A stretch of 51,094 nt of DNA from a virus (Duplodnaviria > Caudoviricetes), in IMG/VR virus record IMGVR_UViG_3300009597_000017, positions 1 to 51,094 of that record; one strand, written 5' to 3'. A program made the position numbers and the translations under genes. This document shows positions 1,715-47,624 of the stretch, in pieces. Within the stretch, counting starts at the first letter, position 1. Each line of letters begins with the position of its first letter. The notes beneath the pieces were generated by a model, which ran no database searches, was not told the DNA's origin, and saw nothing but the letters and a program-made list of their open reading frames with translations.

Positions 1715-1743
1715 TTGACAAATCGGCTCTAAGTCGTTAAGTT
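1715..1743 (+). promoter_or_regulatory. Sigma70-type promoter
   Basis: TTGACA-N17-TAAGTT directly before the GTG at 1749, so possibly leaderless. Confidence 0.6.
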
Positions 1744-1748
1744 TAAAC

Positions 1749-2000
1749 GTGCTTCACATTTGGTTCGAACGTTTAATCGCCGACGATGGTAGTGAGCGAG
1801 TATTTGCGCATATTGCGGCAGACCGCGTTTTTGGCTACGCCGCAGAGATCAAAGCGACGATTCCAAAAGGCGTTTTGGTTTCAGTGCCGCCAAAGCTTAA
1901 GCCGATTGACGAGTGGCTTGTACGCAAGTGCGGATTTAAGCGCATCGGAACGGTCGAATTAGACGGTGAAGAAAACGCAGTTCTGGAGAAAGTCGAATAA
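1749..2000 (+). CDS. Small protein, possibly degenerate GNAT-like
   Basis: 83 aa ORF ending in a CGFKRIG motif; position between tail and ejection genes. Confidence 0.45.
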   Translation: MLHIWFERLIADDGSERVFAHIAADRVFGYAAEIKATIPKGVLVSVPPKLKPIDEWLVRKCGFKRIGTVELDGEENAVLEKVE

Positions 2001-2001
2001 C

Positions 2002-2520
2002 ATGGGCAAGGGCTTTAAAAAGGCGATCAAAGGCATCGGCAAGGTTGTCGGCAAAGGTTTGAGCATTGCTGCTCCCTTCGCTGGCCTGATTCCCGGCGTC
2101 GGTGTCCCGCTCGGCATGGCCTTGGGCGCGGGCGGCAAGGCTCTTGGTCGCGCTCTAAGTGGCAAGAACACCTTCGGCAACGGCGGCCTTGGCGAAATCG
2201 CTGGCGGCGCTGCAATGGGCGGAGGAGGCGCAGCTTTGGCCGGCGGTCAGGGCTTTAAGGGACTTGGCAATATTGGCGCGAACATTTCCAAAATCGGCAA
2301 GTCGGGCATTGGAAAAGCGGTGGCAAAGCAATTCACAGCCCCCGGTGGCGGTGTCGATCTTGGTCGAGTCGTCGGCGCTGGAACAGCAGTGAGCAGTGTT
2401 CTAGGCGCTCGCCAATCGCGCAAATCGGCCGAGTCCTACAACAATGCAAACACTGACTTGCGCAATCAACTCATGTCCCGAATTCTCTCAAGCTCGTCGT
2501 CCACAGGAGCACCACGTTAA
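2002..2520 (+). CDS. Glycine-rich DNA ejection/pilot protein
   Basis: MGKGFKKAIK start with Gly/Ala-rich amphipathic repeats. Confidence 0.55.
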   Translation: MGKGFKKAIKGIGKVVGKGLSIAAPFAGLIPGVGVPLGMALGAGGKALGRALSGKNTFGNGGLGEIAGGAAMGGGGAALAGGQGFKGLGNIGANISKIGKSGIGKAVAKQFTAPGGGVDLGRVVGAGTAVSSVLGARQSRKSAESYNNANTDLRNQLMSRILSSSSSTGAPR

Positions 2521-3260
2521 TGGCATACGCTCTCGACAACCGAGGCGGCGGGAACGCGCTGCCGCCATTTCTGCAAGGTCGCACAGGTCAGCCGGGCGCT
2601 TCACAGCCGATGATCGCGCCAAAGGCGTCGATCACTCCCGGCGAAGTGGCGGCGCCGAAGCGTGGCAACTTGTTTAATCAAATGAAGAAACGTCAGCCTG
2701 CACAGAGCATGGGCATGTTTGGCAAGCTGTTTCAGAACAAGAACAATCAAGCGGCGGCAAAGCCAGCGATTACGCCGGGAAGTCATGGGCCGCAGAGTGG
2801 CCAATTGCCGACGCCAGCGGCACAGCCAGCGCAGACGTTGTATGAATTCTTTAAGAAAGATTTAGAGCGTCAGCGAGATTCTTCGCTCGCAGACACTCAG
2901 GCAGATGCGTCGCGCCGCGGCGTCTTCTACGGCACGCCATTGACCACGTCTCAAGGTGACATTCAGACTGAGTATAATCGTGGTTTGGGTTCGTTGCAAT
3001 CCGGCATTCTGCAGAATCAGGAGCAGAACGAAATTCAGCGCCTTGGATTGGCGACAAATCTCTTGGGCAATGGCGGTCAGGCACAAGCGCAAGGCATCGA
3101 CCCATCGGTTTTTAACACGATTGGCTCGTTACTCGCGCCGCGTCAAGGCCCGGCGGCAACTGCCCCGGCGCCACCGCCGATTTCGCCGGCGAAGCCAGCT
3201 TTGCCTCTGCAGAATAACCAAAAGCCGCAAGGTCCGGCCATGCCTTGGCGGAATTATTAA
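2520..3260 (+). CDS. Putative internal virion/ejection protein
   Basis: Q/P-rich 246 aa ORF, coupled by TAATG; DASRRGVFYGT motif. Confidence 0.5.
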   Translation: MAYALDNRGGGNALPPFLQGRTGQPGASQPMIAPKASITPGEVAAPKRGNLFNQMKKRQPAQSMGMFGKLFQNKNNQAAAKPAITPGSHGPQSGQLPTPAAQPAQTLYEFFKKDLERQRDSSLADTQADASRRGVFYGTPLTTSQGDIQTEYNRGLGSLQSGILQNQEQNEIQRLGLATNLLGNGGQAQAQGIDPSVFNTIGSLLAPRQGPAATAPAPPPISPAKPALPLQNNQKPQGPAMPWRNY

Positions 3261-3263
3261 TCC

Positions 3264-5749: not shown

Positions 5750-5750
5750 C

Positions 5751-6029: not shown

Positions 6030-6342
6030 ACCGGGTTGTTGCTGGTTTAAACGCCGGGCCGGTATAATGCCCGCGTTCGACCTCAAGGCACCAACGGCGC
6101 AAGTCGGCGGCCGTCACGTATTCGATGTCCCAAGCGTCGAGCGCCGGCCGCCACTTCGGGTCAGCATAGGCTTTGCGACTCGCCTCAGCGCCGTATAGGA
6201 CGGTTAATGGGCATTGGCGAGGCTCTACGCCGAATAGAGCGTCGAATGGCGGCGCTTTAAGACCGTCGATTCGAGCACGGAGACGACGTGCGTTTTCAGC
6301 CGTGCCGATTAAGCAAAGCCATGTGCCTACAATGTTGTACAT
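6001..6342 (-). CDS. Hypothetical protein
   Basis: 113 aa ORF with globular composition, downstream of a promoter and structured leader. Confidence 0.45.
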   Translation of the reverse strand: MYNIVGTWLCLIGTAENARRLRARIDGLKAPPFDALFGVEPRQCPLTVLYGAEASRKAYADPKWRPALDAWDIEYVTAADLRRWCLEVERGHYTGPAFKPATTRFTAPSALAS

Positions 6343-6467: not shown

Positions 6468-6495
6468 AATATACTCAACCGAGTCAAAAAGTCAA
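6468..6495 (-). promoter_or_regulatory. Sigma70-type promoter
   Basis: TTGACT-N16-TATATT. Confidence 0.55.
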
Positions 6496-7049
6496 GGGCC
6501 AAATTTGCCGATTAAGTACGCACCGGCAATCCAAGGCGCTTCTCGCACTAGGCGAGTGACTAGACTCGGACTAGCTTTACGCTGCCATGCGTCGCGCTGA
6601 TTGCGGTACAAAGTCGCGACTGACATCGCCGAATCGCGCTGTTCTGCGCGCGTCAGCGCGGTCGCCTGCCAGAACAGCAATGCCAACGAGTCTGTATGAT
6701 GTTGATAGTCAAGGGACTTAATCGTCGCCGTTTGGGCGTCTAAAACCTCTTGAACCTCGGCGAGTTGCGGTGGCAAGGCGGCTAGAAGCGAGTCTGAATG
6801 TCGACGAGTAACCACGACGATGTTATTCGCATTGCGCATCTCGGCAGCGTGCCGAGCCGAGTCGACCTTGATTTGAAATTCAAGAGCGACAATCTCGCCT
6901 AGTAGACGACCACGGACCAAATCGGTCGAGTCTCCAGAACTGCGCAATTCGACGTCGGATTGCCCGCGTTTAAACTGACACCACCCCCATACATAGGCGA
7001 GGACAACAGCGCCCAAGATCAGCAAGACTGTGCGCAGTGTTTTATTCAT
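6492..7049 (-). CDS. Membrane-anchored coiled-coil protein (spanin/Rz-like)
   Basis: N-terminal TM segment, helical body, hydrophobic C-terminus; follows endolysin and holin candidate. Confidence 0.5.
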   Translation of the reverse strand: MNKTLRTVLLILGAVVLAYVWGWCQFKRGQSDVELRSSGDSTDLVRGRLLGEIVALEFQIKVDSARHAAEMRNANNIVVVTRRHSDSLLAALPPQLAEVQEVLDAQTATIKSLDYQHHTDSLALLFWQATALTRAEQRDSAMSVATLYRNQRDAWQRKASPSLVTRLVREAPWIAGAYLIGKFGP

Positions 7050-7360: not shown

Positions 7361-7930
7361 TCAGTTCATTTTCAAAGCTGCTTTGCGTACTCGGTTCAGT
7401 CGGGGAATCCAGACTTGAACAGTAAACCACGGGAAGCGACTTGACTCGCCCTTGTTGCGAGAATCTTTGGCGTATTCCAAAACGCGCTGAAAACAAAGCT
7501 CGTCGATTAGCTTCGGCACGTCGCGCAATTTCGAATTCAGCGCCGTTTGGGTCTTCGGCCCCCAAGCAGCGTCGTCGGGGACGCCGACTGCGCGTTGAAG
7601 AATTTGAATAGCCGTCCCGCTGCCTTGATTTACGCTTGAATCAAACAAGACATAGGCGACTCCTGTAGGAACATAATCGCCCTTAATCGGAACCCAATAC
7701 TCGGCGTTGTAAACCCACTCGGCGTGTTGCCGAGTGAAATCACGAACGTAGCGCGGATACGCATTATACTTCGGCTTGTCGCGCATTGTGCTCCACGCCC
7801 GTTGACTAATGCCCCAATTAGTCTCGCCGCCACCATCGCCGGGGATGTTGGCGTATCCAGACGGATTGCCGGGAAGACCAACCCCCTCGTCGATGAAGAC
7901 GAGATTCATGAGGTCAGTAAAGCGCGGCAT
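7361..7930 (-). CDS. Endolysin, glycoside hydrolase family 108
   Basis: EG...GYAN.PGD.GGETNWGIS, YW, FDSSVNQG, LQRAVGV motifs. Confidence 0.9.
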   Translation of the reverse strand: MPRFTDLMNLVFIDEGVGLPGNPSGYANIPGDGGGETNWGISQRAWSTMRDKPKYNAYPRYVRDFTRQHAEWVYNAEYWVPIKGDYVPTGVAYVLFDSSVNQGSGTAIQILQRAVGVPDDAAWGPKTQTALNSKLRDVPKLIDELCFQRVLEYAKDSRNKGESSRFPWFTVQVWIPRLNRVRKAALKMN

Positions 7931-8316
7931 TAAGTGGCGGCGTTCGTGATTTGATTCGCCGACGTTGGACGCGTGACGGTATACAATTCAACCGTGACCG
8001 TCGCCGTTGTGGCGCCCGCCACAATGATGTCAGCCGTCTCGTTGTCTCCACAAACCAATGGGCGTTTAAACTCGTAGATGACTGGGGCCATTGCACCAAT
8101 TGGCAAATTGCCCTGTCGCATAACGACAGCACCGCCATTGCGGCGAATTTGCCATGTGCCGGCAGCCGTCGACGAAACGCCGAACGAAACTGAGAAGCCA
8201 ATGACGACGAGTTGCTGGCCAGCGCCCGGCGCCGCTTGGGTCGCCGTTGCCGCTGCAGTGCCGCTTGCCGTCTTTGTGTTCTCGGCGAAGCCGCCGAGGA
8301 AATCCTGCTTTTCCAT
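7930..8316 (-). CDS. Hypothetical (probable virion) protein
   Basis: 128 aa Ala/Thr-rich beta-type ORF in a tight operon. Confidence 0.55.
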   Translation of the reverse strand: MEKQDFLGGFAENTKTASGTAAATATQAAPGAGQQLVVIGFSVSFGVSSTAAGTWQIRRNGGAVVMRQGNLPIGAMAPVIYEFKRPLVCGDNETADIIVAGATTATVTVELYTVTRPTSANQITNAAT

Positions 8317-10961: not shown

Positions 10962-12140
10962 TTACTCCAATTCGCCGCGCAAATACTGCCGCATCTTCTC
11001 GCGTGTATTTACGTCAGCCGGCATCGTTTCGCCGCCGCCCGGCGTGGAGCCGCCGCCGCTTGGAGGCGCTTTACGCGTTTTTCCCCGAAGACGTTCAGTC
11101 GACGCATTAGTCTTTCCTGCTTCGAGCGCAGTCAAGCGCTTGGTCAAATCGGCGATTGTCTTGTCTCGTGGGTCTCCATCAGCCTGTGGCTGTGCAACGC
11201 TCTTGCCATTCGCCGCGTAGCCGTGCCCTTCAAGAATGGCTGGCATCTCGTATTGCAGAATAGCTTGAATCTTGTCAGGAGTCAGGAAATCGCCCTCTTG
11301 CTCACAGAGGTACAACACGTATTGAGCGATTTCAATTGCATTCGCGCCATATTGGGTTGCCAACTCCTGCGCGCGTGGAACAATGTTCTCGTTGAAGAAT
11401 TGTTGACCAATTTCGTCAAAGCGCGAGTCGTCGGCTGGCGCCGCTTCTCGGCCGTTTGAAGCAGGCGCGCCACCCTGCGCGAGCGCTTGCTGATACGCCA
11501 CGGCCAAACGCTGAATCGGTTCGGGATTGCCATTGACCAATGCGGTCAGTGCAGTGTCCCATACTCGACGCTCGTTATTGAATTGCGCCACTTGTGACTC
11601 GGCCGCAACTGCGCGTTGCATGGCTTGAGCACGTTCAGCGCGCGTGTCGACCAAGACTTTCTCGTTGTAGTGGCCAAGCGACGCGACTCGTGTCAAATCA
11701 CGAAGCGACTTGCGCTGTTCCTTCGAGAGCGCGTTATAGCCAACCTGAACCTTGCCTGTCAAAAGATCAAGAGCCGAAACCTTGGTCGGGTCTTTAATCT
11801 CAGCGCCCTTGGCGTCAAAGAGCTTAAAGCCTTCGAGTTTAAACGGCGCAGTCGTCGGGGCAACGATTGGCGGCGCTTCAGTGCCCGGCGCCGCGTCGTC
11901 GTCTTCCTCAGTCGCAGATTCACGAGCCTTCGCCCATTCGGTCGTCAACTCCTCGTCAGTCATTCCTTCGGAGATTTCGCCCAATTGCTCACGCAACTGT
12001 GCTGGCGTATAATCGTTCTCGCCACCCGCCAAGTCGCCGAGTCGAGCGTCGAATTCAGAATCGGCAAGAGTCTGCGCGACAATGTCGTCGTGGCCACTGC
12101 TTCCAGTGGCGTTCGCCGGCAAAGATTGTTCAAGAGCCAT
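10962..12140 (-). CDS. Putative capsid scaffolding protein
   Basis: Acidic N-terminus, coiled coil, basic/Gly C-terminal tail; directly after the portal. Confidence 0.55.
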   Translation of the reverse strand: MALEQSLPANATGSSGHDDIVAQTLADSEFDARLGDLAGGENDYTPAQLREQLGEISEGMTDEELTTEWAKARESATEEDDDAAPGTEAPPIVAPTTAPFKLEGFKLFDAKGAEIKDPTKVSALDLLTGKVQVGYNALSKEQRKSLRDLTRVASLGHYNEKVLVDTRAERAQAMQRAVAAESQVAQFNNERRVWDTALTALVNGNPEPIQRLAVAYQQALAQGGAPASNGREAAPADDSRFDEIGQQFFNENIVPRAQELATQYGANAIEIAQYVLYLCEQEGDFLTPDKIQAILQYEMPAILEGHGYAANGKSVAQPQADGDPRDKTIADLTKRLTALEAGKTNASTERLRGKTRKAPPSGGGSTPGGGETMPADVNTREKMRQYLRGELE

Positions 12141-12154
12141 TGTTTAAACGTCCT

Positions 12155-14572
12155 TTAGGCTTGAGTGCCTGCAATTTGCTGCTCTCCACCCGTCAACTCG
12201 GCAGGTGGCAACTGACTAGCTGCTGACGGAACGGCTGAAGATTCGGGATTCGGCGAGGTTTGAGGCCCACCGCCAGTCGGCGCTCCACCCACTGTAGGAG
12301 GCGGCGGCGGCTGACTCGCAGCAGCGACCCCGCCAGTCGGCGTTGGTTGCATAGTGGCCAAGCGGTCGGCCGGGATTCCCGTCGTTTCCATCGGGATTGG
12401 AGTCACGCCAGTCGGGTCATTCATTGCACGTTCCAACTGATCGTAAATGCCCCAACGCTCAAGGGCAAGTTGTCGCATGCCCCAAGGGCGGCGCTCGTTT
12501 AGAATGATTTCGAGCAAAGCTGGCTTATGTACTGTCGTATACGCGGCTGGAACGCCCATTTGAGCAGCGGGTCCAACAGCCCCTTGCTGAGGCATTGGCG
12601 GCGCTTGCTGCACATCCTGCCACAAGACAGGAATGCCGCCATAACCCGCCGAGTAGCGCTGAGACATGTCTAGCTTCTCAATTTCTTCCCACTGTTCTTC
12701 AAGCTGCGTGTTCACAAACTGAGCGCGCTCCCACTGATCTGAGTCGCCCATGCGAATGTCACGAATGTTTGAAAACACGCTACCTTTTTGATACGTTTGC
12801 AGCGTAATCCGGCCCTTGTCGAGTTGCTCCTCAAGCAATTGCTGCTGAAGCGCCCGAGGAAGCGGCATCATGGTCTGTGGGTCAACATAGACCATCGGTC
12901 GATCACCAAGCATTTCTCCATCAATGCGCTTGGCCAAATCACCACGCCCGCCAACTGCTGGAATCAAACGCGGCTCGTCGAATAGCCATTGCGCATATTT
13001 GACGATCAGGATTGCAAATTCCGTCGCGCCTTCAGCACCAGCACGAACGGCTGGCCCAAACGTACGCTCAAGCGCTTGCTGCATAGCCAGAACGGCACGG
13101 CCCGAGATGTCTTGCGCCGAGGCAGACCCGCCGCCTGTAACTTGACCACGCGCAATGTCGTTCCAGCCGGTTTTGTCTTCAAGCTTTTTAATCAACCAGT
13201 CGAGCAAGCGCCAAGCGTCTTGGCCGGCGGAAACCGGCGGAAACTGATCTGGCTTCGCTCCTTGGTATTCAACGAAGCTGCCAGTAATGTTCGAAAACGT
13301 TTCTTCAAGCACTGTGCCCTTCAGTGCCAACATTCGCCCGCCGGTGAACCAGCGCGCGTGCTTAAGCAGCGCCGACAACAAGGCATTAATCGCCATCTGA
13401 TCGCCAATCCAATCCGACATGATTGGACGTGGGAAAATGTCGGTGTCTGCCGAACCGTCTGTAAAGCGGGCGAGCGGAATGACACCACCCGGCAACTCGT
13501 CGCCACGGTCAACGATTTTATCGCCGATTAGACGAATCCACAATCCAGATTCAAGACCCGGCTCGTGCTGATCGGGGGCAATCCAAAGAATGTACTCAGC
13601 CACGCCCTCAGTGATGCGTTGACGACGAGTAGGAAATGGCGGCAATCCGCGCTGCCATCCCATACTACGGTCCAGCGGCAAATCCATCGCGTCGTTCTGC
13701 GACGAAATTTGAGTCTCGGCTTCGAGTTGCGAATTTCCTGTTTCAAGGCGAGCTTGCTCGACAGAACGCACACGTCGAACGAGCGCCCATTTGGCACGGT
13801 CAACCGGCCCGTTGACAGAACGCGCTTCAGGGTCGAAGACAACTTCGTGAGCAAGCAGAATCCGGCAGGCAATCTCGCCCTCGTAGAGAATACGAGGTTC
13901 AGCATCGGGCGGAGCGACTACGCCTTCGTCGGCGTAAGGCAATTCAAGCAAGCCTTGCTCATTAATCATATAGCCTTGCGCCTTCAAGCCGGCGAATCGT
14001 TCGTCGGTCTCAGGAATCAAGTCAACGTCTTCGCGCGTCGGCCCGGCGTTTTTGTCTACAAAGACGTGAAGGAACGAAACGCCGTCTGATTGCGCATGAA
14101 ACCAAGCGTCTTGAAACGCGTTCCACGCGCGCAACATGTAGAAGTAATACTCAGTGACCGACTGTTGCGCTTCAGCCGATTCACGGCCGGCAACGCCGCC
14201 GACCAGTGGCTCGTGACGGAAGCCGGGCTTTTGCTCTGAGATTACGCCTAGACGGAAATCAAGAGCCGGCCCAATAACGTTCAGGACTGAGCGCACATCA
14301 TTGGCATCAGCTTGAGGCTCACGCCACGTCCGACCGTCGCGAGTGGAAATCCACTGATGTCCCGCGCGGAAATGCCGATGCCGAGTCCAGTGCAAGCGCT
14401 TATCGCGCATCACGCCATCTTGCTGCTTGCGCTGAGACTCAATCCAAGTGCGCCACTTCTTTCCATCTTGCTCGTCGAGTAAAGGCATGCCTTCGCCGAA
14501 TTTGCGCGCAAGGCGTTTCTTCGGGTCGGCGACATCCATACTCGTTGTATCAGGCGTCAGTTCACTCGTCAT
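12155..14572 (-). CDS. Portal protein
   Basis: 805 aa after TerL; AGHQW, LNVI, DP.A, GQ...SGRAV motifs of P22-like portals; low-complexity C-tail. Confidence 0.85.
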   Translation of the reverse strand: MTSELTPDTTSMDVADPKKRLARKFGEGMPLLDEQDGKKWRTWIESQRKQQDGVMRDKRLHWTRHRHFRAGHQWISTRDGRTWREPQADANDVRSVLNVIGPALDFRLGVISEQKPGFRHEPLVGGVAGRESAEAQQSVTEYYFYMLRAWNAFQDAWFHAQSDGVSFLHVFVDKNAGPTREDVDLIPETDERFAGLKAQGYMINEQGLLELPYADEGVVAPPDAEPRILYEGEIACRILLAHEVVFDPEARSVNGPVDRAKWALVRRVRSVEQARLETGNSQLEAETQISSQNDAMDLPLDRSMGWQRGLPPFPTRRQRITEGVAEYILWIAPDQHEPGLESGLWIRLIGDKIVDRGDELPGGVIPLARFTDGSADTDIFPRPIMSDWIGDQMAINALLSALLKHARWFTGGRMLALKGTVLEETFSNITGSFVEYQGAKPDQFPPVSAGQDAWRLLDWLIKKLEDKTGWNDIARGQVTGGGSASAQDISGRAVLAMQQALERTFGPAVRAGAEGATEFAILIVKYAQWLFDEPRLIPAVGGRGDLAKRIDGEMLGDRPMVYVDPQTMMPLPRALQQQLLEEQLDKGRITLQTYQKGSVFSNIRDIRMGDSDQWERAQFVNTQLEEQWEEIEKLDMSQRYSAGYGGIPVLWQDVQQAPPMPQQGAVGPAAQMGVPAAYTTVHKPALLEIILNERRPWGMRQLALERWGIYDQLERAMNDPTGVTPIPMETTGIPADRLATMQPTPTGGVAAASQPPPPPTVGGAPTGGGPQTSPNPESSAVPSAASQLPPAELTGGEQQIAGTQA

Positions 14573-14970: not shown

Positions 14971-16431
14971 TTAGTCCCAAGCTCCCAAATCTTGGAAGTA
15001 GTTCTGCTCAGGCCGCTTAGCGTCATCGACGATTTTGTCAAACGTTGTGTCAAACTGACTCGGGTCGCGCTTAGTCGTAGTTGGCATCGTCGATTGCGTC
15101 GCCGGCTGTTCATAAACCGCCATTACTCCATAGCGTAGAGTGTCAGCGGCGTGATCTTCCTGCCGCGGCCGGATGTCATTCGGGTCTTTGCCCGGCCCTG
15201 AATTGCGCTGAAGCTTAGGCAACGTTCGAACGAGGTTTGGAGCACCGTGGCCAAACGCGTCCATTGGCCAGACGCGCAAAGCGGCTTTGCCCTGCAAGTC
15301 GATGATTTTAGACCAGCCGGCAAGACGATCAGTATTTGCCTTCTCGACGGTTACGCCCTTCATCGTGAGCATAGAGGCAATGCTTTGATTGTCTCCACTC
15401 GCGCTTGGCTTGCGATTCATCATTTCAGGCGAGCCAATTGAATACATTACGCCTCGCAGCTTCAACTGTTCTTCGCGCTGTTTAATATAGTGTGCAATGC
15501 CTTCAAGCGTTGTTTCACGCACATACAATTCAGAGACTACGTCGACAACACCAGCGCGGGCGTAGTACAAAAGCCACAAGACGCAGGTATAATCGTCGAT
15601 GCCATAGTCGATTGCTCGAATGACGACGTAGTCAGAGTCGAGCATCGTCGGTTTGTCGAGCACGATCAATGGCTTTTTAAACATGGCGCCAACAAGTTGG
15701 TCCCAACGTCCATGAATGTACGCAGCGACGTCTTCAGGCGGCATTCCGCTGACCATGCCGGCGACATACTCCTCGCGGTTCGGCATAGCAGTATTGTCCC
15801 AAACTGTCGACGGAATGAATTGCCGCGTAATCGTCACATTGGCGTGTCCCTCGCCAATGTCAACGATTTCGTCATAGACCTTATACGCTTCGCGCAACGT
15901 GCCTTGCTGCTCGACGCCGATGAAACGATTTAAGACCCAATCGTGCCCAATGTCGCCGGGGTTCGTGCCTGAGCGAATTTGAAGCGGAAGATCAATCGAC
16001 TTGGTTCGATTACGTGTGAACATGAACGCGTACATTGGCTCTGAGAACGACGTGACTTCGTCGAAGCAGACCAAGTTGTACTCAAACGATTTAAACGAGA
16101 AAATGTCTTTCTCGTGCTCGGCGTAACCCATTTGAACAATGGCGCCGCTTGGGAATCGCCAACGTGACTCAGCTTCTCGCCACTGCGCGCCCGGCACGGC
16201 AAGAGGATACAATTGCAAGCTGCGGTCGATCATTTCTTGCAGATTTGGCCGTGTACGCCGCAGCATCAATGCGCGATGCTTCGGATGCTCAACGTAACGT
16301 AGAGCACAGGCCAGCAAAGCGTCGGTTTTACCGCCTCCTACTGCGCCGCCGTACAAGACTTCACGCGCCTCTGACATTAGGAAAGCCGTTTGAGGTCCGT
16401 CATTAGGCTTCCATAGAATGTCATTGCTCAT
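14971..16431 (-). CDS. terL: Terminase large subunit
   Basis: Walker A YGGAVGGGKT, Walker B VCFDE, TNPG, nuclease IDYG and DHAADTLRY. Confidence 0.95.
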   Translation of the reverse strand: MSNDILWKPNDGPQTAFLMSEAREVLYGGAVGGGKTDALLACALRYVEHPKHRALMLRRTRPNLQEMIDRSLQLYPLAVPGAQWREAESRWRFPSGAIVQMGYAEHEKDIFSFKSFEYNLVCFDEVTSFSEPMYAFMFTRNRTKSIDLPLQIRSGTNPGDIGHDWVLNRFIGVEQQGTLREAYKVYDEIVDIGEGHANVTITRQFIPSTVWDNTAMPNREEYVAGMVSGMPPEDVAAYIHGRWDQLVGAMFKKPLIVLDKPTMLDSDYVVIRAIDYGIDDYTCVLWLLYYARAGVVDVVSELYVRETTLEGIAHYIKQREEQLKLRGVMYSIGSPEMMNRKPSASGDNQSIASMLTMKGVTVEKANTDRLAGWSKIIDLQGKAALRVWPMDAFGHGAPNLVRTLPKLQRNSGPGKDPNDIRPRQEDHAADTLRYGVMAVYEQPATQSTMPTTTKRDPSQFDTTFDKIVDDAKRPEQNYFQDLGAWD

Positions 16432-30717: not shown

Positions 30718-30719
30718 GT

Positions 30720-31136: not shown

Positions 31137-31288
31137 GAGCACAGCGTCGAATGTGCGTCAATGCCACATCGCGCGACGAATCGGCCGCAAGATTGGCAAA
31201 TGTACCAATCCAATCGCCCCATGCGCTCAAATGGCCAGTAGGCAAAACGTCGAGTGACGATTAAGCGCCAGCGTTTAAACATTTGATT

Positions 31289-32427: not shown

Positions 32428-33027
32428 TCATTTCCGCTTTCCTTTCGTCGAAGCCTCGCGCATAGCTTCAGAATTGCACGGGCACAACGGCGCGCCGGAT
32501 TCGTCAAGCCATTTGCGCGTGACGCGCGCAGTATAGCCGCACTCACAGCAAGAGACTTTGAGCAAGCGCGTAGTTTGAGGCTTTTCATTATCGCGCGGCG
32601 ACAGCGCAGCGTGCGGGTAGTCGCCAAGCTTAGACGCAATCTTGACCAATACGGCGCGCAATTCGTCGCCAGCGCCGGCCGACGTTGGCTTACCTTTAGT
32701 CAAGCCAATTGCCTTGCAAGCCGTAATGAATTTGCCATTATGGCCACTATGCGGGTCAATCGCCGCGTGTACCAATTCATGCGCCAGCGTGTCTAAGACT
32801 TCGACCGCGTCAGCCTCAATTGGCGTAATGAAGATTTGCGAAACGCCATCTTTGGCCGCCGATTGCTTCCAACACTGCCCAACAGCTTTGCGCTTCCCGC
32901 GTGGAAAGCCAACGCTTACCCGCACGACAGTAGGGACAGGAAACCCGACAGTGTCGAAGTGAGCGCGCAACGCGTCGACGCCAGAGGCAAGCCAAGCCTC
33001 GCGCGTGACATGCACGACAGTAGCCAT
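32428..33027 (-). CDS. SprT-like zinc metalloprotease
   Basis: LAHELVH, GH.GKF, C-terminal CxxC pairs; start placed at ATG 33027. Confidence 0.75.
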   Translation of the reverse strand: MATVVHVTREAWLASGVDALRAHFDTVGFPVPTVVRVSVGFPRGKRKAVGQCWKQSAAKDGVSQIFITPIEADAVEVLDTLAHELVHAAIDPHSGHNGKFITACKAIGLTKGKPTSAGAGDELRAVLVKIASKLGDYPHAALSPRDNEKPQTTRLLKVSCCECGYTARVTRKWLDESGAPLCPCNSEAMREASTKGKRK

Positions 33028-33064: not shown

Positions 33065-33083
33065 AGTTTAAACCCCATGTCAA
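33065..33083 (-). promoter_or_regulatory. TTGAC-N7-TAnnnT motif, copy 3
   Basis: TTGACA TGGGGTT TAAACT. Confidence 0.5.
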
Positions 33084-34262: not shown

Positions 34263-34270
34263 CATGTTTA

Positions 34271-34289
34271 AACCTAGCTATGCCGTCAA
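34271..34289 (-). promoter_or_regulatory. TTGAC-N7-TAnnnT motif, copy 4
   Basis: TTGACG GCATAGC TAGGTT. Confidence 0.45.
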
Positions 34290-35290: not shown

Positions 35291-35351
35291 CAAAATATCG
35301 GGCTTGGTTTAAACAAAGGCGGGAATTGCAGTTGCGAAGCTTACAACAGGA

Positions 35352-35630: not shown

Positions 35631-36175
35631 TTTGTTTTACACGCATAATAGTCGCCGACTCGAACTGGCGTGACTTCAATCTCCCAAATTACACAAGCCG
35701 TTTCGTCGCCGGCGATCACGACTTTGACTGGCGTCAAAACGTCGTTTAGACGGAACCATGACGAACTGCGCCAACCCAAAGGATCGACGAATTCAATCAC
35801 TCGACTGGCGACTTTTACGACCTCACGACATTGCTGACTGACATCGCCGCTTGAAACCACGACGGCATAAGTTTTTAAATCGTCAACATTAATGTCAAAG
35901 CTGGCGTCTGCCACAATTAAAACAACGCGCGTGTCGGCATATGGGAGTTTAAACGTGTGTCGCGAGCATTTCGGCACAATTCCAAGGAAGCGAGAGGCCG
36001 AGTCGACGGCGGGCGCTTGAACAATGGCAGGCAAATCAATTAATGTATTATTGACGATTTCAAGTCGGGCAACAACGCCGACTGGACTAAAGCTGCGCTC
36101 TGGAGGATTTTTGCCGTAGACAATAAAGCCGGCAATGAGCAGGACGGCAGGGAGGGATTTTAGAAATTCTAGCAT
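35612..36175 (-). CDS. Hypothetical membrane-anchored protein
   Basis: 187 aa with N-terminal hydrophobic helix. Confidence 0.5.
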   Translation of the reverse strand: MLEFLKSLPAVLLIAGFIVYGKNPPERSFSPVGVVARLEIVNNTLIDLPAIVQAPAVDSASRFLGIVPKCSRHTFKLPYADTRVVLIVADASFDINVDDLKTYAVVVSSGDVSQQCREVVKVASRVIEFVDPLGWRSSSWFRLNDVLTPVKVVIAGDETACVIWEIEVTPVRVGDYYACKTKWRGRQ

Positions 36176-37098: not shown

Positions 37099-38132
37099 TA
37101 CGAACCAACCTTTCGCAACTCAACACGACGATTCAATGGATTGTCACCTTCACGCGCTTCAGGGAATCGCGGCTGCGATTCTCCATAGCCAACGGCGTTC
37201 ATTCGACTGGCAGAAACGCCGCGGGACGCCAAGTAATTCTGAACAGATTCAGCACGAGCTTGGCTCAGCGCCTGATTGTACAACGTCGAGCCAATGCTTG
37301 ACGTGTGGCCAGCGATTTCAAACTTGACGCTCAACCACTGACTCTTGTTCAAGGCATCGGCGACACGATCAAGAATGTCCATAGCGGCAGAAGTCAACTC
37401 AGGAGAGTCGAATTCAAAATTCACGCCTTCAAGAACGAGCGTGTCTTTGATCTCAACCGTGGCAGGAGCGCAATCGCATAGAATGCGCACAGTGTCTGGC
37501 TTAGACGGCGCGTACTGAATGGCTGGCTTTTCGCGACCGTTCGTAAAGAGCGACAAACCGACGATCAACGAGTTGTTCCAAGCCGTCTTGGCGTTTGGCA
37601 ATTCGGCGAAGTGTTCAGCCGCGCGTCGAGCCTCGACCTTGAACATCACATACTTGCTCAAAGCAAGACGGAAACCAGCGCCGTAGAACGCGCCCCAAGT
37701 CGGATGCGTAACGTTGCCATTTCCAGTTACGCGAGTGAATTGAGTGCCGCCAGAAACAAATGGCGAGAACCGCGCATTCACATTGGCGGTCAGCGTCAAA
37801 TCGGCCGAAGGAGTCAAGAACTTAACTTCGCTACCATGCAGTGGCTTATAGCCAAAGGCGCCGAAGTTATTAAACGAGCGTCCACCGATTACGCCAACGC
37901 CGAATTGCACGTGCCGATTGACATTATAGCCGACTCGCGCGCCGGCAGCCGGAACGAACTGATTCTTGTTCCCGTTCGCGGCGAAGCTAGTGCTCAAAAA
38001 GTCAATCAAGTGCTTGTCGAAGTAATACGCGCCGACGCCAGCCGAATATTCAAAACTCCCCTCGCTGCGCTGAGCGGCGAGTGGAACGGCTAGACCGAGG
38101 CAAAGCAGGATTGTACAAAAGAGTTTAAACAT
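37098..38132 (-). CDS. ompA: OmpA-family outer membrane protein (beta-barrel plus peptidoglycan-binding domain)
   Basis: Signal peptide, alternating beta strands, VNFEFDS, IAGHTS, NQALSQARAESV, GYGE, NRRVE. Confidence 0.92.
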   Translation of the reverse strand: MFKLFCTILLCLGLAVPLAAQRSEGSFEYSAGVGAYYFDKHLIDFLSTSFAANGNKNQFVPAAGARVGYNVNRHVQFGVGVIGGRSFNNFGAFGYKPLHGSEVKFLTPSADLTLTANVNARFSPFVSGGTQFTRVTGNGNVTHPTWGAFYGAGFRLALSKYVMFKVEARRAAEHFAELPNAKTAWNNSLIVGLSLFTNGREKPAIQYAPSKPDTVRILCDCAPATVEIKDTLVLEGVNFEFDSPELTSAAMDILDRVADALNKSQWLSVKFEIAGHTSSIGSTLYNQALSQARAESVQNYLASRGVSASRMNAVGYGESQPRFPEAREGDNPLNRRVELRKVGS

Positions 38133-41722: not shown

Positions 41723-41740
41723 ATGATGTAAAAAGGAAAG

Positions 41741-42382: not shown

Positions 42383-42657
42383 GGGGTCAAGATCATTGAG
42401 TCTTTGTCTACCAAAACGCCTCCGCACTGGCAAGCAAGATTGCCACGTTTAAACTGCTTGTTAAATTCAGTCCACGTTTGCAGGCTGAACAGCGCTTGGG
42501 TCAAAGCGCCGCATTTTCGACACTTGAGAACGGCGCTTACGGACCAGTTTTGAACCGCCGTCAAGCCGCTTCCACGCAATGCGACTTGGACAAAGGGGTG
42601 ACACACAAGAGCCGATTCCGCCAACAACTGCTGAATCGTCGTCAATGCTGTAGTCAT
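42379..42657 (-). CDS. Zn-ribbon hypothetical protein
   Basis: CRKC...CQCGG. Confidence 0.5.
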   Translation of the reverse strand: MTTALTTIQQLLAESALVCHPFVQVALRGSGLTAVQNWSVSAVLKCRKCGALTQALFSLQTWTEFNKQFKRGNLACQCGGVLVDKDSMILTP

Positions 42658-43409: not shown

Positions 43410-43438
43410 TTGACAAAAGTCAACTAATCGACTATGTT
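43410..43438 (+). promoter_or_regulatory. Capsid operon promoter
   Basis: TTGACA-N17-TATGTT. Confidence 0.65.
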
Positions 43439-43581
43439 TAAACCGTCAAAACGCTGCACCCCGCCAACTTGCGGCTGCATCCTGCCAAGACGCCAATCAA
43501 CGCGCGACCTTCCCGCCGAGGAACTCGCTCCAAGACCCCGCTTCGGCAGTGTTTTAATGCAGCATCAAGGAACACCCAAAA

Positions 43582-44865
43582 ATGGCAGACCCAACTAGTC
43601 TACAGGATTTGACACCAATCCTGCAGAACGTGTATTTGCCAATCCGTAAGAAAATCTTCCCGATCAACACGGTGTTGCTCGCTCAAGCGCGTAAGCTCGG
43701 TCCCGAGCACGTGACTTACGCTGGCAACGATTTGTTCTTCGACGTGAAGGTTGACCGACGCGGCGGCTTTACTTCCTCGACCATTGGAGCGTTGCCTGAG
43801 TCCAAGGTTGCGAAGGAAAAGCAGGGCCGTCTCTCGGTCGCTCGTACCTACGCCAAGGCACAGGTCGACGGGTTGGCTTTGAAGGCGAATTCAACCACTC
43901 GTGGCTCGTATATTAGCACGGCCAAGAAAATCACCGAAGACATCATGGAGCAGTGGGAGCTTGAGCAGGAGCGAATCCTGCACGGAGACTCTCTCGGCAT
44001 CCGAGCCGTCTCAGCCTCGGGCGTTGCTTCGGCGACGCAAACCGTAATTAGTCCTTATGGAATCACCGGCGCCGGTCCCGGCAACTTGCATCTCGTCGAA
44101 GGAGACACGATCTCGTTCCGCTCGTCGGACGGCGTGACGCTCCGCGGCAAGCGCAAGATTCTCACGATCACACTGGTTGAAGCCACTGGCGTTGCGACGC
44201 TCGTGCTCGACTCGTCGGTCACAACGACGACGGGCGACATCGTGCTCGCGGCCGTTCCAGTCGCGGTCGACGCCAACGACGACTCGTTCGGCGCCGAACC
44301 TCATGGCATCAAGTCGATCATGGACGTTGAAAATGCGTTCGCCACCTTCGAAGGTCTGAACGATCTTCGCTGGTCGGCAGTTAAGAACACATCGACGACC
44401 GTCGACGAGACCATCGTGATGAAGCTGCTCAACACAATCCGCGCGCGTTCTGGCGTTGATTGGCGTAAGTCGCCGCGCAACATGCTGCTCTTGACCACGA
44501 CTGGCATCTGGCAGGCGTATGGAGAATCGCTGCTCGGTCTCCGTCGCTTCTCGGCCCCAACGATGGAACTCAAGGGTGGCTTCACCGGCGTCATGGTTGC
44601 CAATGCTACACTGATTGACGACCCATGGGCGCCGCGTGGTCGGCTCTACGCGATCTACGGCCCCGACACGGTCTTCATTGACCTCATGGACTTCGGCGAA
44701 GTCAGCTTCCAAGACGCGCCGAAATGGCAACGCGCCAACAACTTTGACCGTTGGGAAGCGGTGTTCGCCAGCTATTGGAACTACGGCGTCACAAGCCGTA
44801 TTTCGCAAGGCGTCATCTCGGGTATCACCGACACGGTCAATTACAGTCCTGTTTTTGGTTCTTAA
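43582..44865 (+). CDS. Major capsid protein
   Basis: 427 aa; LPE, ERILHGD, PHGIKSI, TFEGL, LKGGFTG, IDDPWAP patterns of HK97-fold capsids; C-ending codon bias. Confidence 0.8.
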   Translation: MADPTSLQDLTPILQNVYLPIRKKIFPINTVLLAQARKLGPEHVTYAGNDLFFDVKVDRRGGFTSSTIGALPESKVAKEKQGRLSVARTYAKAQVDGLALKANSTTRGSYISTAKKITEDIMEQWELEQERILHGDSLGIRAVSASGVASATQTVISPYGITGAGPGNLHLVEGDTISFRSSDGVTLRGKRKILTITLVEATGVATLVLDSSVTTTTGDIVLAAVPVAVDANDDSFGAEPHGIKSIMDVENAFATFEGLNDLRWSAVKNTSTTVDETIVMKLLNTIRARSGVDWRKSPRNMLLLTTTGIWQAYGESLLGLRRFSAPTMELKGGFTGVMVANATLIDDPWAPRGRLYAIYGPDTVFIDLMDFGEVSFQDAPKWQRANNFDRWEAVFASYWNYGVTSRISQGVISGITDTVNYSPVFGS

Positions 44866-44872
44866 TTGACAG

Positions 44873-45214: not shown

Positions 45215-45228
45215 AAGGAACAACAACA

Positions 45229-45708
45229 ATGGCAGACACAATTTTCGGTCGCAATCTTCCTGAAGCGCGGCGCGTTTTGAACGCCGAGTTGGCCGCATTC
45301 CCGGTCAACACCACGTCGATTCAATACGTGCTCGTCCTTCCGGTCGGCGGCGGCAAATTCCGCGTTGAAGCGGTCTATTGGACGGCTTCGGCCGTTCTCA
45401 GCGACGCCGATGGCACTATGCTGATTAACGTCATCAACAGCGATTTGAGCGAAGGCGCCGACGACACACTCGTCGCCTCATTCAGCGTTGAAGGTGGCGT
45501 TGCGCACCGCGTGGCGGCGGCGACTCTGGCTGCCGAAACGTCGGAAAAGGAATTCACGCTCGAAGAAGGCGACAGCCTGCGCGTGACGTTCGTCAACAAC
45601 TCGGCGGCGATTGACACCAACGGCGCGATCAGCGTCTTTGTGGTCGGTTTCCCGCTGCCGTTGCCATATGACCCAACGAGCGGCGTCAAGTACGAGAGCG
45701 GTTACTAA
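45229..45708 (+). CDS. Putative capsid decoration/cement protein
   Basis: 159 aa beta-rich ORF after the capsid gene; AAGGA SD. Confidence 0.55.
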   Translation: MADTIFGRNLPEARRVLNAELAAFPVNTTSIQYVLVLPVGGGKFRVEAVYWTASAVLSDADGTMLINVINSDLSEGADDTLVASFSVEGGVAHRVAAATLAAETSEKEFTLEEGDSLRVTFVNNSAAIDTNGAISVFVVGFPLPLPYDPTSGVKYESGY

Positions 45709-45805
45709 GACTGAGTTGCGCAGTTACGCAACAAATTGCTGGCTGACGTTGTTTTGGCGGATTCCCGTCTAAGCAAAGAGCGCCAGATCGACAAGGAATT
45801 TAAAC

Positions 45806-46030
45806 ATGGCAAAGGCCCATGATCGAGTCGTAGAACTCGTGTTCGTTGCCGACGATTCGGCAGAGACTGTTATTGTCTCGGCCGTAAACTACTACCGTGT
45901 GCGCGGCGACACCGCGTACCCGCTGAAGTTTACCCAATCGTCGCCGAATACGACAGGAACAGAACTCGCCCTAGGCGATTTGCTGCCGCCTCCGACGCAC
46001 ATCGCTTTGACGTTCACCGTCGTGGCGTAA
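45806..46030 (+). CDS. Hypothetical virion protein
   Basis: 74 aa, AAGGA SD. Confidence 0.55.
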   Translation: MAKAHDRVVELVFVADDSAETVIVSAVNYYRVRGDTAYPLKFTQSSPNTTGTELALGDLLPPPTHIALTFTVVA

Positions 46031-46587
46031 TGGTTCTTTACGGAGCCAATGGCTCGGTGGTGCGCTCTCAACGAGCGCGCCCCGAGCCTAATGCGGAGGC
46101 GGAAGAACGCGTTCGCACTATGCTCAAGAGCATGGACGAATTGCTCGACATTAAGTGGTTTCCCTACGCTGTATTCAACCAAAAATACAACGACTACGAA
46201 GGGCGTTATGCGCTGATTTGCAAATGGCCCCAAGGCGACAAACGCTGGTCGTTGTACCAAAGCGGTGAAATCGAAGACCCGTGCGACATGTTCGGTTGGT
46301 TTTGTGACGACATTCACGACGCCGACACAATGCCTGTCTCGCCAGATTCGATTGAGCGCAAAGTCTTAGAACTCCTCGGCAAGTGTGACTCAAACCGCAT
46401 TCCCCACAGCACGCGAATGAAGCAAGCGATGGAGAAAAACGCCGCTCTGCGCAAATCACGCAAGACGGAAATGGCTGACCAAGCCGGCGAGATCGCTCGC
46501 GACTTGCACTACATCAGCGGTCATGTCGAAGACGTGACGCTTAAACGAATCATGAAGGAAATCATTCAAGAGGCTCAGAACAAATGA
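46030..46587 (+). CDS. Hypothetical protein
   Basis: 185 aa coupled ORF. Confidence 0.6.
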   Translation: MVLYGANGSVVRSQRARPEPNAEAEERVRTMLKSMDELLDIKWFPYAVFNQKYNDYEGRYALICKWPQGDKRWSLYQSGEIEDPCDMFGWFCDDIHDADTMPVSPDSIERKVLELLGKCDSNRIPHSTRMKQAMEKNAALRKSRKTEMADQAGEIARDLHYISGHVEDVTLKRIMKEIIQEAQNK

Positions 46588-46928
46588 CTGCTCCAGTCCG
46601 AGAACTCGTACAACTGCCAAACAAGGATTTGTGGCGTGGACGTGCCCAAGACAGCGATTTGCCGCCGGTGCCAGTAATTGCAGCCGCCGACGTTGCCGTT
46701 GTAGCCAATCCCGTCGACAAGGCTATGGCAGCGATTCTCGCATTTTCTGCCGGCGCTCAAGAACTGAGTTGCGTTTGGTGTGGTCTTCAGGGTGACGAGG
46801 CGTTTATGCGCGCGCATTTGAAGAAAGACCATAAATCAGTGGTCGAGCCAGCGGCCGATGCCGCTGTCGCACTTGTTGACGCGCAGATTGCTCGCGACGA
46901 ATTGGCCGCGTTTCAAGCCAAGGAGTAA
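46584..46928 (+). CDS. Hypothetical protein with C2H2-like motif
   Basis: CVWC...HLKKDH. Confidence 0.55.
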   Translation: MTAPVRELVQLPNKDLWRGRAQDSDLPPVPVIAAADVAVVANPVDKAMAAILAFSAGAQELSCVWCGLQGDEAFMRAHLKKDHKSVVEPAADAAVALVDAQIARDELAAFQAKE

Positions 46929-46949
46929 AGCCTCGACGGAGTTGACTAA

Positions 46950-47624
46950 ATGCTGACCAAAGCCCAAGCTCGCATGATGACGCGCGAGTGGCTTGACGAC
47001 CCGAATGCAAAACGCTGGTCGGACGCCCGAATCGACTTGGCCATTCAGTTGGCTCTCGACGATTTGTGGACCGACATGCTTGACATGCAATCGAGTTTGA
47101 CGAGTCAGCTTCATACATTTGTAACTTCAACACTGATCTCGCCGGGCTACATTGATTTGCGCCTAACCACAATGGGCGGTCAGCTTACTCAACGGTTCTA
47201 CCGAGTGCAACGCGTGACTGTCGGCGGGCGTGAATGTCACCCCGTCGACGCTCGCGACGTTTTGATCGAAAACAACGTGGCGATTGTCGGCAGCGACGCT
47301 GGCTACTACGTGCTCGGCGATCAACTCTGGCTATTCCCACTGTCGCGCACCGATCAGGTCGAGTTGCGTTACTCGTTTAAACCAACACCATTCACGGCAA
47401 TGACAGAAGGCATGTATATTCCATTCCCCGAAGGCAGTGATTCAGCGTATGTATTGCTGGCGGCTGCGACGACAATGGCCAAAGGCGGCGCTGAAGACAT
47501 TGGACAACTGATGCAACTCGCCCGAGAGTCTCGCGAACGTTGCATGGCGGCCATTCGCCGACAATACCACGGTGCCACCGTTATGTATGGCACAGATCGT
47601 GGCTCTGACTTTGGAGGCGCGTAA
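46950..47624 (+). CDS. Head-tail adaptor / tail tubular A-like protein
   Basis: LDDP..KRWSD, YYVLGDQLWLFP, LRY, PFPE. Confidence 0.7.
   Translation: MLTKAQARMMTREWLDDPNAKRWSDARIDLAIQLALDDLWTDMLDMQSSLTSQLHTFVTSTLISPGYIDLRLTTMGGQLTQRFYRVQRVTVGGRECHPVDARDVLIENNVAIVGSDAGYYVLGDQLWLFPLSRTDQVELRYSFKPTPFTAMTEGMYIPFPEGSDSAYVLLAAATTMAKGGAEDIGQLMQLARESRERCMAAIRRQYHGATVMYGTDRGSDFGGA

Follow-up and report, generated by a model that had tools for sequence, protein, structure and literature searches.

An exact 8-bp palindrome dispersed through a phage genome co-occurs with a zinc ribbon, its candidate reader, fused to a SprT-like protease

Cluster A mycobacteriophages carry stoperators, 13-bp asymmetric words that are oriented with transcription, lie mostly in intergenic regions and are read by the helix-turn-helix repressor of a temperate phage (gp71 in L5). 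ArdC-type anti-restriction proteins of conjugative plasmids combine a DNA-binding domain with a metalloprotease domain, and bind single-stranded DNA without a known word. HIP1 of cyanobacteria, GCGATCGC, is an 8-bp palindrome that is 15- to 300-fold over-represented and selected within coding sequence (PMC5861425; PMC4390886). The protease SPRTN, according to the abstracts of two papers, is activated by DNA structure (single/double-strand junctions) and not by a sequence word (PMC7534798; PMC7826251). Here we describe an 8-bp palindrome, GTTTAAAC, that is repeated through the genome of a virus of the Duplodnaviria (Caudoviricetes), IMG/VR record IMGVR_UViG_3300009597_000017 (hereafter G000). 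The window analysed is the whole record of 51,094 bp (54.3% GC), which CheckV rates as 100% complete and in which no end repeats were found. Across phages, the word co-occurs tightly and specifically with a zinc ribbon, which in G000 forms the C-terminus of a SprT-like zinc protease, P0121. On these sequence comparisons, GTTTAAAC is probably the dispersed DNA address of this phage-encoded ribbon reader, fused to a protease of the SprT/Wss1 type.

GTTTAAAC occurs exactly 22 times in G000. A sequence-only reading of this DNA had proposed these 22 copies as a HIP1-like signal; every coordinate that it gave is correct, and the window holds no further copies. Markov models of orders 0, 1, 2 and 3 expect 0.53, 0.69, 0.37 and 1.41 copies, and 100 dinucleotide-preserving shuffles gave a mean of 0.60 (standard deviation 0.71, maximum 4). 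Orders 5 and 6 expect 10.7 and 19.0 copies and are uninformative: these models take as given the sub-words GTTTAAA and TTTAAAC, nearly every copy of which lies within the full GTTTAAAC. The word is the top-ranked 8-mer of G000 by Markov-3 z score (17.2), and 22 of the 37 occurrences of TTTAAA have the G and C flanks that complete it. The sequence-only reading had named a codon-preserving null as the comparison under which the enrichment might vanish, and the enrichment survives it. In 1000 synonymous-codon shuffles with proteins and per-gene codon usage fixed, in-gene copies averaged 0.80 (maximum 5) against 11 observed, and none of the 1000 reached 11. Genes were called by a codon-usage score with a Shine-Dalgarno bonus and greedy non-overlap, calls that are approximate for small genes and crude at high GC. 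The same shuffles of a related record, G002, gave 0.35 in-gene copies against 7 observed. GTTTAAAC thus resembles HIP1-type words in being a many-fold enriched 8-bp palindrome that is also found in genes and withstands a codon-preserving null.

The signal is the exact octamer, without a halo of near-matches. The 24 one-mismatch words of GTTTAAAC sum to 18 occurrences in G000 against 25 expected, and to 9 against 8.3 in G002; one-mismatch variants, which had been put forward as extra copies, are not enriched. No extended consensus is visible in the flanks of the 22 sites.

A polymerase query retrieved five related IMG/VR records. Enrichment in related phages had been suggested as a check, and it is found in G002 (50,876 bp, 54.3% GC), which holds 12 copies against 0.2 expected and in which the word is again the top 8-mer. 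There are no copies in G004 (47,544 bp, 95% complete) or G005 (49,497 bp, 99% complete), both at 47.6–47.7% GC, nor in two related fragments of 6.9 and 12.6 kb. In core proteins G004 is nearer to G000 than G002 is (terminase, 67% vs. 58% identity; head protein, 84% vs. 76%), so the word does not track descent. Homologues of four G000 genes are present in G002 yet in neither G004 nor G005, and the best conserved of the four (63% identity) is the gene of P0121. No counterpart of this gene was found in G004 or G005 by tblastn (best E above 2), and the family profile, which matches the positive controls G000 (1e-90) and G002 (6e-87), has no match in these two records.

P0121 is assigned to phrog_6361, a family of unknown function (PHROGs E 2.6e-46). 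Its score against the Pfam SprT-like family (PF10263) is 16.3 bits, below the gathering threshold of 25.6 (E 0.0088); some homologues hold a precomputed PF10263 hit, and a few of the longer ribbon proteins pass the threshold. Residues H83, E84, H87 and H96 are invariant across 40 homologues, as is a block of ribbon residues, so that the family has the conserved HExxH motif and downstream third zinc ligand of SprT, Spartan and Wss1. The AlphaFold2 model of P0121 has a pLDDT of 91.9, and its N-terminal domain aligns best with human SPRTN (6mdx; Z 8.2, with 93 residues aligned at an rmsd of 3.2), followed by abylysin (4jiu; Z 8.1) and yeast Wss1 (5xbn; Z 7.8); 6mdw is the top Foldseek match (E 4e-3). 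These fold scores are middling, a Z of 7–8 being the usual best for models without a clear match, yet the top rows are all zincins. The invariant catalytic residues suggest that P0121 is an active protease. No match to the ArdC families in Pfam was found at E up to 10, and Pfam detected no nuclease or repair domain in P0121. The family profile found nothing below E 0.1 among PDB sequences, and NCBIfam and PADLOC scans returned nothing.

The C-terminal stretch of P0121 reads, in order, KPQTTR..K, then C..C, GY..R.TRKW and CPC. Across 23 ribbons, residues Q, R, K, C, Y, P, C and P are invariant; no Pfam family was found for these ribbons, which gave weak generic zinc-ribbon hits (best E 0.003). 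A ribbon-only profile found 2331 cluster representatives in a library of 1.84 billion proteins. Most have ~190–220 residues and carry the ribbon C-terminally, and many have 48–100 residues. We checked 35 of the top 150 that were unusually long or middling (131–391 aa). The longer ones mostly have a weak SprT-like hit just before the ribbon, and no other recurrent partner domain was found in these 35.

The association between word and gene was surveyed in both directions. A search for related loci with P0121 as a single sequence found nothing, and an alignment query was needed. The family alignment retrieved 242 IMG/VR relatives, of which 80 loci of up to 21 kb (1.007 Mb) were kept. At least three copies of either GTTTAAAC or its one-base variant GTGTAAAC/GTTTACAC are present in 75 of these 80 gene-first loci, 54 with the palindrome and 28 with the variant. 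The reversed control words reach three copies in none of the 80, and the totals are 368 and 197 for the two words against 9 and 15 for their controls. In most gene-first loci the word or its variant ranks first or second among the over-represented 8-mers. The variant was found at 60–73% GC only, and the palindrome at 42–67% GC. In the whole records of 50 of the 80 loci, GTTTAAAC is present at least once in 35 and at least three times in 30, with a maximum of 47 copies, against 0–2 copies of the control word. The exceptions are L025, L042, L060, L065 and L093, the last of which has a tail without KQxTR. In L025 other words, for example ACGGGATA, head the 8-mer list. L098 and L099, in which the ribbon has an inserted CxC, hold 5–7 copies of GTTTAAAC together with a far stronger AAATACTA/AATACTAG/AGTATTTG family (7–10 copies, z 22–30). 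In 13 of 79 loci, against 6.0 expected, the 120 nt before the candidate reader gene contain a site, an excess too modest for an autoregulatory upstream site to be the rule.

As a control, an alignment of four terminases retrieved 276 relatives, of which 80 loci were kept and 40 were tested (records of ~9–65 kb, excluding family members already counted). None of these 40 matches the family profile, and all 40 hold 0–1 copies of GTTTAAAC (nine hold one), the same as for the reversed word. In the reciprocal direction, IMG/VR was searched for three GTTTAAAC at gaps of 210–240 and 240–270 nt, which yielded at least 120 stretches, and 28 records of at least 15 kb outside the gene-first set were tested. 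These 28 have 6–55 copies of the word each, and 24 of them match the profile (among the matches listed); of the 11 rated 90% complete or better, 10 match. P0121 alone among 63 G000 proteins has homologues in the word-first stretches (70 of 115, among the matches listed), the others reaching at most one locus each; the word-first phages therefore have nothing in common with G000 but the gene and the word. For annotation, each can be used to predict the other, the gene from the word count and the word from the gene.

Within the family, the word can be assigned to one of the two modules. Five word-rich records (G096, G102, G110, G113 and G119; 33–47 copies) match the profile over its last ~50 positions only, in open frames of 60–101 codons. 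Their proteins are stand-alone ribbons of ~55 residues, and G113 is 94% complete. In another group the ribbon behind the protease is longer and retains KQ[ST]TR and CPxC. We also examined 11 named cultured phages with a homologue. The KQxTR ribbon is present in seven, all of which carry the word or its variant (5–41 copies): Escherichia phage ECO1230-10 (vB_EcoM_ECO1230-10; 5 copies of GTTTAAAC), Burkholderia phage Mica (7), Dinoroseobacter phage R5C (17), Pseudanabaena phage Pan1 (16), Arthrobacter phage Maureen (17 variant copies), Microbacterium phage Gretchen (14 variant copies and 2 of the palindrome) and Streptomyces phage JackieB (41 variant copies). The other four (Bordetella phage CN1, Pseudomonas phages PSA20 and Epa43, and Microbacterium phage Dismas) have a tail without KQxTR and hold 0–1 copies of either word; the tails of CN1, PSA20 and Epa43 lack cysteines as well. 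Given stand-alone ribbons that come with the word and homologues with degenerate tails that come without it, the word follows the ribbon and not the protease.

The same comparison bears on whether another factor reads the word, with the ribbon-protease removing that factor (for example a host protein on AT-rich GTTTAAAC-like DNA) or its gene being merely linked to that of the true reader. SprT-type proteases act on DNA-bound proteins, as the abstracts cited above state (PMC7534798; PMC7826251), binding by the ribbon is itself deduced from sequence, and the actinophage homologues adjoin other annotated DNA-binding proteins. Such an arrangement seems unlikely to us, since protease-free ribbons accompany 33–47 copies, homologues without KQxTR come without the word, no further G000 gene is common to word-rich phages, and the hosts span several phyla.

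The hosts of the named phages are Actinobacteria, alpha-, beta- and gamma-Proteobacteria and a cyanobacterium, a breadth that makes a host-imposed word unlikely. A word could be imposed by base composition, by biased repair, as an uptake signal or as the site of a host enzyme that the phage mimics, and a shared host could explain why G000 and G002 agree in GC content and carry the word, when G004 and G005 have a lower GC content and do not. Against this, the enrichment recurs in phages from no fewer than five bacterial classes and from 42 to 67% GC, the 40 terminase relatives without the gene all lack enrichment, and the exactness of the word and the residue changes that it entails favour selection in the phage. 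We consider a host origin very improbable; these distributions link the word with a specific phage gene and not with the host.

The variant is informative on how the word may be read. Across 21 variant loci there are 161 single variants and one copy of the double variant GTGTACAC. The near absence of the double form led us to reject a symmetric dimer with relaxed half-sites; it favours a model in which one ribbon would read the whole octamer asymmetrically. Relative to the candidate reader gene, the variant shows a strand bias in the high-GC loci L022–L044, L073 and L094 (GTTTACAC 123 vs. GTGTAAAC 38), and intergenic variant copies peak 10–29 nt before start codons. This bias may reflect codon constraints or a direction-dependent role. 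The orientation of the variant inside genes was set aside as a line of evidence, the simple gene caller being unreliable in high-GC loci, where it placed a third of coding bases on the minus strand.

The locations of the 22 sites in G000 are given in Table 1. Eleven lie in genes, eight of them read as xxG TTT AAA Cxx and three as xGT TTA AAC. Five abut or overlap a start codon (1741, 12142, 30718, 34266 and 38123). The sequence-only reading had placed 12142, 30718 and 38123 in start regions, correctly, and 1741 also belongs there. It had further assigned promoter overlaps to 1741, 33066, 34266 and 43436, of which consensus scans retain 43436 alone; promoter-like hits cover only this site and 42447, that is, 2 of the 19 sites covered by two scans. 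With 11 of 22 sites inside genes as well, a sigma-70-type promoter element was rejected. A weak terminator-like hairpin ends beside the site at 1741. The density of sites peaks in an arm of small early genes (27.3–36.2 kb) at 0.79 per kb and is 0.13–0.50 per kb elsewhere. Spacing in G000 has a coefficient of variation of 0.81 against 0.94 for random sets, 23% of which are as even, and G002 is less even than random, so even spacing was rejected too. A packaging or recombination site, also suggested earlier, finds no support in this spacing, and a word that is its own reverse complement cannot carry the orientation of Chi, pac or DNA-uptake sequences. GTTTAAAC contains the classical slippery heptamer, but as a -1 ribosomal frameshift site (U_UUA_AAC) it would be in the needed frame in 3 of the 11 in-gene sites, 11 sites lie outside genes, and the flanking G and the palindrome would be unexplained. 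The pattern looks like that of a word put where its cost is lowest, rather than that of a promoter, terminator or frameshift signal.

Table 1. Copies of GTTTAAAC, the candidate reader gene and other annotated genes in G000
Feature	Position	Strand	Location or assignment	Remark
Candidate reader gene P0121, 199-aa SprT-like zinc protease with C-terminal zinc ribbon	32428..33027	-	phrog_6361	
HExxH zinc-binding motif (residues 83-87, HELVH)	32767..32781	-		further invariant His at residue 96
C-terminal ribbon module (residues 150-189)	32461..32580	-	KQxTR..K, GY..R, CPxC	putative reader of GTTTAAAC
Site 1	1741..1748		intergenic	28 nt past stop of 1107-1712(+); abuts GTG start of 1749-2000(+)
Site 2	6045..6052		in gene 6001-6342(-), codon 97, GCG TTT AAA CCA	G002 and G004 orthologues: F-Y and F-D
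Site 3	6968..6975		47 nt upstream of called start of 6492-6920(-)	within longer open frame 6492-7121
Site 4	8064..8071		in gene 7930-8316(-)	GAG TTT AAA CGC vs. GAG TTT AAG CGT in G004: synonymous
Site 5	11837..11844		in gene 10962-12140(-)	sole in-gene site with same aligned position in G002 (18566); G004 and G005 differ
Site 6	12142..12149		between portal stop and next ATG	1 nt before ATG of 10962-12140(-); 5 nt past stop of 12155-14572(-)
Site 7	20046..20053		in DNA polymerase gene 19836-22514(-)	GGT TTA AAC (G-L-N) vs. G-L-I in G002 and G004: residue change
Site 8	21002..21009		in DNA polymerase gene	ACG TTT AAA CTC vs. GCG TTC/TTT AAG GAA: synonymous change and E to L
Site 9	22067..22074		in DNA polymerase gene	stretch absent from G002 and G004 orthologues
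Site 10	24783..24790		in gene 24762-25076(-)	DUF7574
Site 11	26720..26727		in PD-(D/E)XK nuclease gene 26048-26890(-)	AGT TTA AAC vs. AGG GTT AAC in G004
Site 12	28017..28024		no confident gene call	inside open frame 27651-28172(-), no family match
Site 13	30718..30725		abuts ATG of 30556-30717(-)	order on gene strand: GGAG, word, ATG
Site 14	31273..31280		8 nt past stop of 31289-31834(-)	
Site 15	33066..33073		38 nt upstream of ATG of candidate reader gene	
Site 16	34266..34273		19 nt past stop of 34293-34466(-)	also counted among sites abutting or overlapping a start codon
Site 17	35307..35314		stretch without confident gene call	
Site 18	35947..35954		in gene 35612-36175(-)	
Site 19	38123..38130		overlaps ATG of OmpA-like gene 37098-38132(-)	codons ATG TTT AAA C..
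Site 20	42447..42454		between tRNA array and 42687-43106(-)	in spacer of promoter-like hit 42440-42467(+)
Site 21	43436..43443		divergent region, 138 nt upstream of major head gene	overlaps second hexamer of TTGACA-17-TATGTT, 43410-43438(+)
Site 22	47375..47382		in adaptor gene 46950-47624(+)	TCG TTT AAA CCA (S-F-K-P) vs. Y-K-P in G002, G004 and G005: Y to F
Endolysin	7361..7930	-	PHROGs/Pfam	
Portal	12155..14572	-	PHROGs/Pfam	
Terminase large subunit	14971..16431	-	PHROGs/Pfam	
Family-A DNA polymerase, UDG-superfamily-like N-terminal domain	19836..22514	-	PHROGs/Pfam	
Major head protein	43582..44865	+	PHROGs/Pfam	
SU10-type adaptor	46950..47624	+	PHROGs/Pfam	

Sites beside start codons raise the question of whether the word acts in RNA, where the ribbon, acting as a translational regulator, would bind GUUUAAAC, or where GUUUAAAC would simply leave initiation regions unstructured. 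Besides the five such sites in G000, 94 of 646 non-genic sites in 77 word-first loci end 0–9 nt before a start codon (among the matches listed), and intergenic variant copies point towards the downstream gene 57 to 22. Over half of the sites are nevertheless deep in genes and in two frames (751 of 1397 in the word-first loci, among the matches listed, and half of those in G000). A plain AT-rich spacer needs no exact 8-mer, whereas one-mismatch words are not enriched, and the orientation bias may stem from codon constraints at high GC, where gene calls are crude. A role in RNA is in our view improbable, and we lean towards reading on duplex DNA.

Codon alignments with orthologues show that sites arise in two ways, through synonymous changes and through amino-acid substitutions in conserved proteins. 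The latter include G-L-I to G-L-N and F-K-E to F-K-L in the polymerase, Y-K-P to F-K-P in the adaptor, and I-L-N to C-L-N in the G002 polymerase. A single in-gene site position is common to G000 and G002 (11837, corresponding to 18566). Site positions turn over between relatives, and selection therefore acts on possession of the word and not on its location; the 22 copies in G000 are kept by selection at the DNA level. Fast turnover, together with one-mismatch words that are slightly below expectation in G000, could also be produced by molecular drive, in which the ribbon protein or a partner would convert near-cognate words by biased repair and the word would spread without serving the phage. 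This is highly improbable: one-mismatch words are not depleted in G002, the protein has no nuclease or repair domain, and many sites cost residues in conserved enzymes.

Palindrome avoidance, which the sequence-only reading had taken as normal for phages, is real in G000, where 15 of the 64 hexamer palindromes are absent, for example CGATCG (27 expected), in what looks like avoidance of particular restriction sites. CGATCG is absent from G000, G002, G004 and G005, and GATC is merely mildly low (140 vs. 196). A second over-represented word, the non-palindromic GCTCTTGA/TCAAGAGC, has 21 copies against 3.7 expected (z 9), for example at 290, 5831, 12130, 19916 and 46124, and one copy sits 4 nt from the GTTTAAAC site at 12142. 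An exact 8-bp palindrome like the site of a type II enzyme, in a genome that shuns many other palindromes, could be a methylation or restriction-related self-mark, as HIP1 with its orphan methylases, and such a mark was among the earlier suggestions. It is a most unlikely explanation, in that no methyltransferase or restriction (nuclease) family was detected among the 55 (PHROGs) and 64 (Pfam) G000 open reading frame (ORF) products, GTGTAAAC is not palindromic, and the co-varying gene has no methylase fold. What stands of the HIP1-like signal proposed earlier is an exact, selected and dispersed palindrome, for which a protein-binding site is the best supported role; the hallmark GATC/CGATCG core of HIP1 is absent, and a HIP1-type methylase site found no support.

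From the co-occurrence across phages, it is likely that the ribbon binds GTTTAAAC. Several observations weigh against this reading. Despite a canonical KQTTR ribbon, copies of either word number 1 in L025 and 0 in L060; L042 and L065 are weak cases. Four word-first records do not match the profile, namely G103 (88% complete, 18 copies), G100 (49% complete), G123 (9% complete) and G115 (complete, 145 kb, 6 copies), and the ribbon-only profile has no match in G100 or G103. The sites in these last two records crowd one contig end, and their ribbon gene may lie beyond it. Nor are the loci independent, with ~35 of the 80 gene-first loci having a nearly identical ribbon and probably being close relatives. 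The word-first gaps were taken from the commonest gene-first spacings, so that the word-first sample leans to the same phage groups. Modelled alone, the ribbon has a generic zinc-ribbon fold (pLDDT 80), and its PDB matches all have E of at least 0.18. No residue was found that separates readers of GTTTAAAC from readers of GTGTAAAC; residues that set T or G at position 3 of the word were considered and rejected, the most divergent columns being spread over the N-terminal domain in a phylogenetic-looking pattern, with none in the ribbon. A palindrome is also transcribed whichever strand is read, which would suit a role in RNA.

If the ribbon is the reader, the ~45-residue C-terminal zinc ribbon of P0121 would bind the dispersed copies of GTTTAAAC, and selection would hold exact copies wherever they are tolerable, in pre-start spacers, intergenic gaps and codons of the two forms given above, with some copies gained at the cost of residue changes. 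Ribbon binding would anchor the protease along the phage genome, at its highest density in the early-gene arm, and the tethered protease would cut proteins bound to phage DNA. That this tethering, rather than plain transcriptional control, is the purpose of the system is a tentative proposal, which we hold with some doubt. Stand-alone ribbons show that binding alone can be useful, and a serious alternative is that the ribbon serves as a regulator or roadblock to which the protease was added. We offer as speculation that a portable pair of address (GTTTAAAC, or GTGTAAAC in high-GC phages) and reader moves between unrelated phages of several phyla, and that in most carriers it might station a protease that cuts host silencers, defence nucleases or stalled polymerases.

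If true, a sequence-addressed protease would be a new class of counter-defence or takeover device, and a ribbon that reads 8 bp alone would be among the smallest sequence-specific DNA readers known. Short exact words that are selected genome-wide are rare and their reader is mostly unknown, above all for HIP1; here there is a tiny and specific candidate. Carriers include cultured and harmless laboratory phages of E. coli, Arthrobacter, Microbacterium and Streptomyces, so the link is testable at the bench, and phage genes annotated as 'SprT-like protease' would gain a testable role. New here are the presence/absence contrast within a phage family, the reciprocal word-first survey with controls, and the finding that the word follows the KQxTR ribbon. 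Literature searches turned up no paper connecting GTTTAAAC or GTGTAAAC with phages or with the ribbon-protease. The main text of a Microbacterium phage paper contains neither 'SprT' nor 'palindrom'; the repeat motifs of that paper are in a supplementary figure (PMC7302621).

As to G000 itself, megablast of 12 kb of the window against a phage collection gave no match. The ends of the record probably reflect circular permutation and not true ends, because the plus-strand structural block (43582-51093, +) leaves at the right end and resumes at the left (1-6029, +). Further replication genes include a Sak4-like ATPase and the PD-(D/E)XK nuclease (26048-26890, -). A nucleoside deoxyribosyltransferase-like gene, which might point to an unusual nucleotide metabolism, adjoins the polymerase with its UDG-like domain (region 19408-22514, -). 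The 30 genes of a tRNA array (36177-42336, -) cover every one of the 20 amino acids, Met among them, an unusually large set for a phage of 51 kb. Beside it (36412-38132, -) lie two host-like genes, encoding an ice-binding-like protein (Pfam E 7e-46) and an OmpA-family outer-membrane protein. The OmpA-like product (37098-38132, -) has its best named relatives, at ~42% identity, in Gemmatimonadota, no more than a hint at the host of G000.

Among described systems, the protease half of P0121 is closest to SPRTN and Wss1 (6mdw, 6mdx and 5xbn), in which a HExxH zincin core is likewise followed by a small zinc-binding, DNA-binding module. It differs in that the abstracts cited above describe no sequence-addressed member (PMC7534798; PMC7826251), and in its Pfam score below the cut-off. 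Gp46 of the actinobacteriophage Lizalica, a 'SprT-like protease', belongs to the same family as P0121 (~50–55% identity); the main text of the Lizalica preprint gives no target sequence, has 'taaac' and 'tttac' 0 times, and does not make the link to an iterated word (bioRxiv 10.1101/2025.05.26.655371). The likeness to ArdC is that a DNA-binding module would bring a zincin protease to incoming mobile DNA, and the homologue in Bordetella phage CN1, which lacks the word, is annotated as 'antirestriction protein'. As with stoperators, a short word that would serve a single phage DNA-binding protein recurs dozens of times across the genome, gene-dense regions included. A stoperator-type array was rejected on the grounds that the word is palindromic and that no helix-turn-helix repressor or integrase families were detected by PHROGs or Pfam in G000; in place of an asymmetric operator, GTTTAAAC is an exact 8-bp palindrome with half of its copies in codons, and its candidate reader is a zinc ribbon joined to a protease. 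HIP1, finally, is a chromosomal word whose GATC/CGATCG core is read by orphan methylases and whose function is unsettled, whereas GTTTAAAC is phage-borne and has a candidate reader that co-varies with it.

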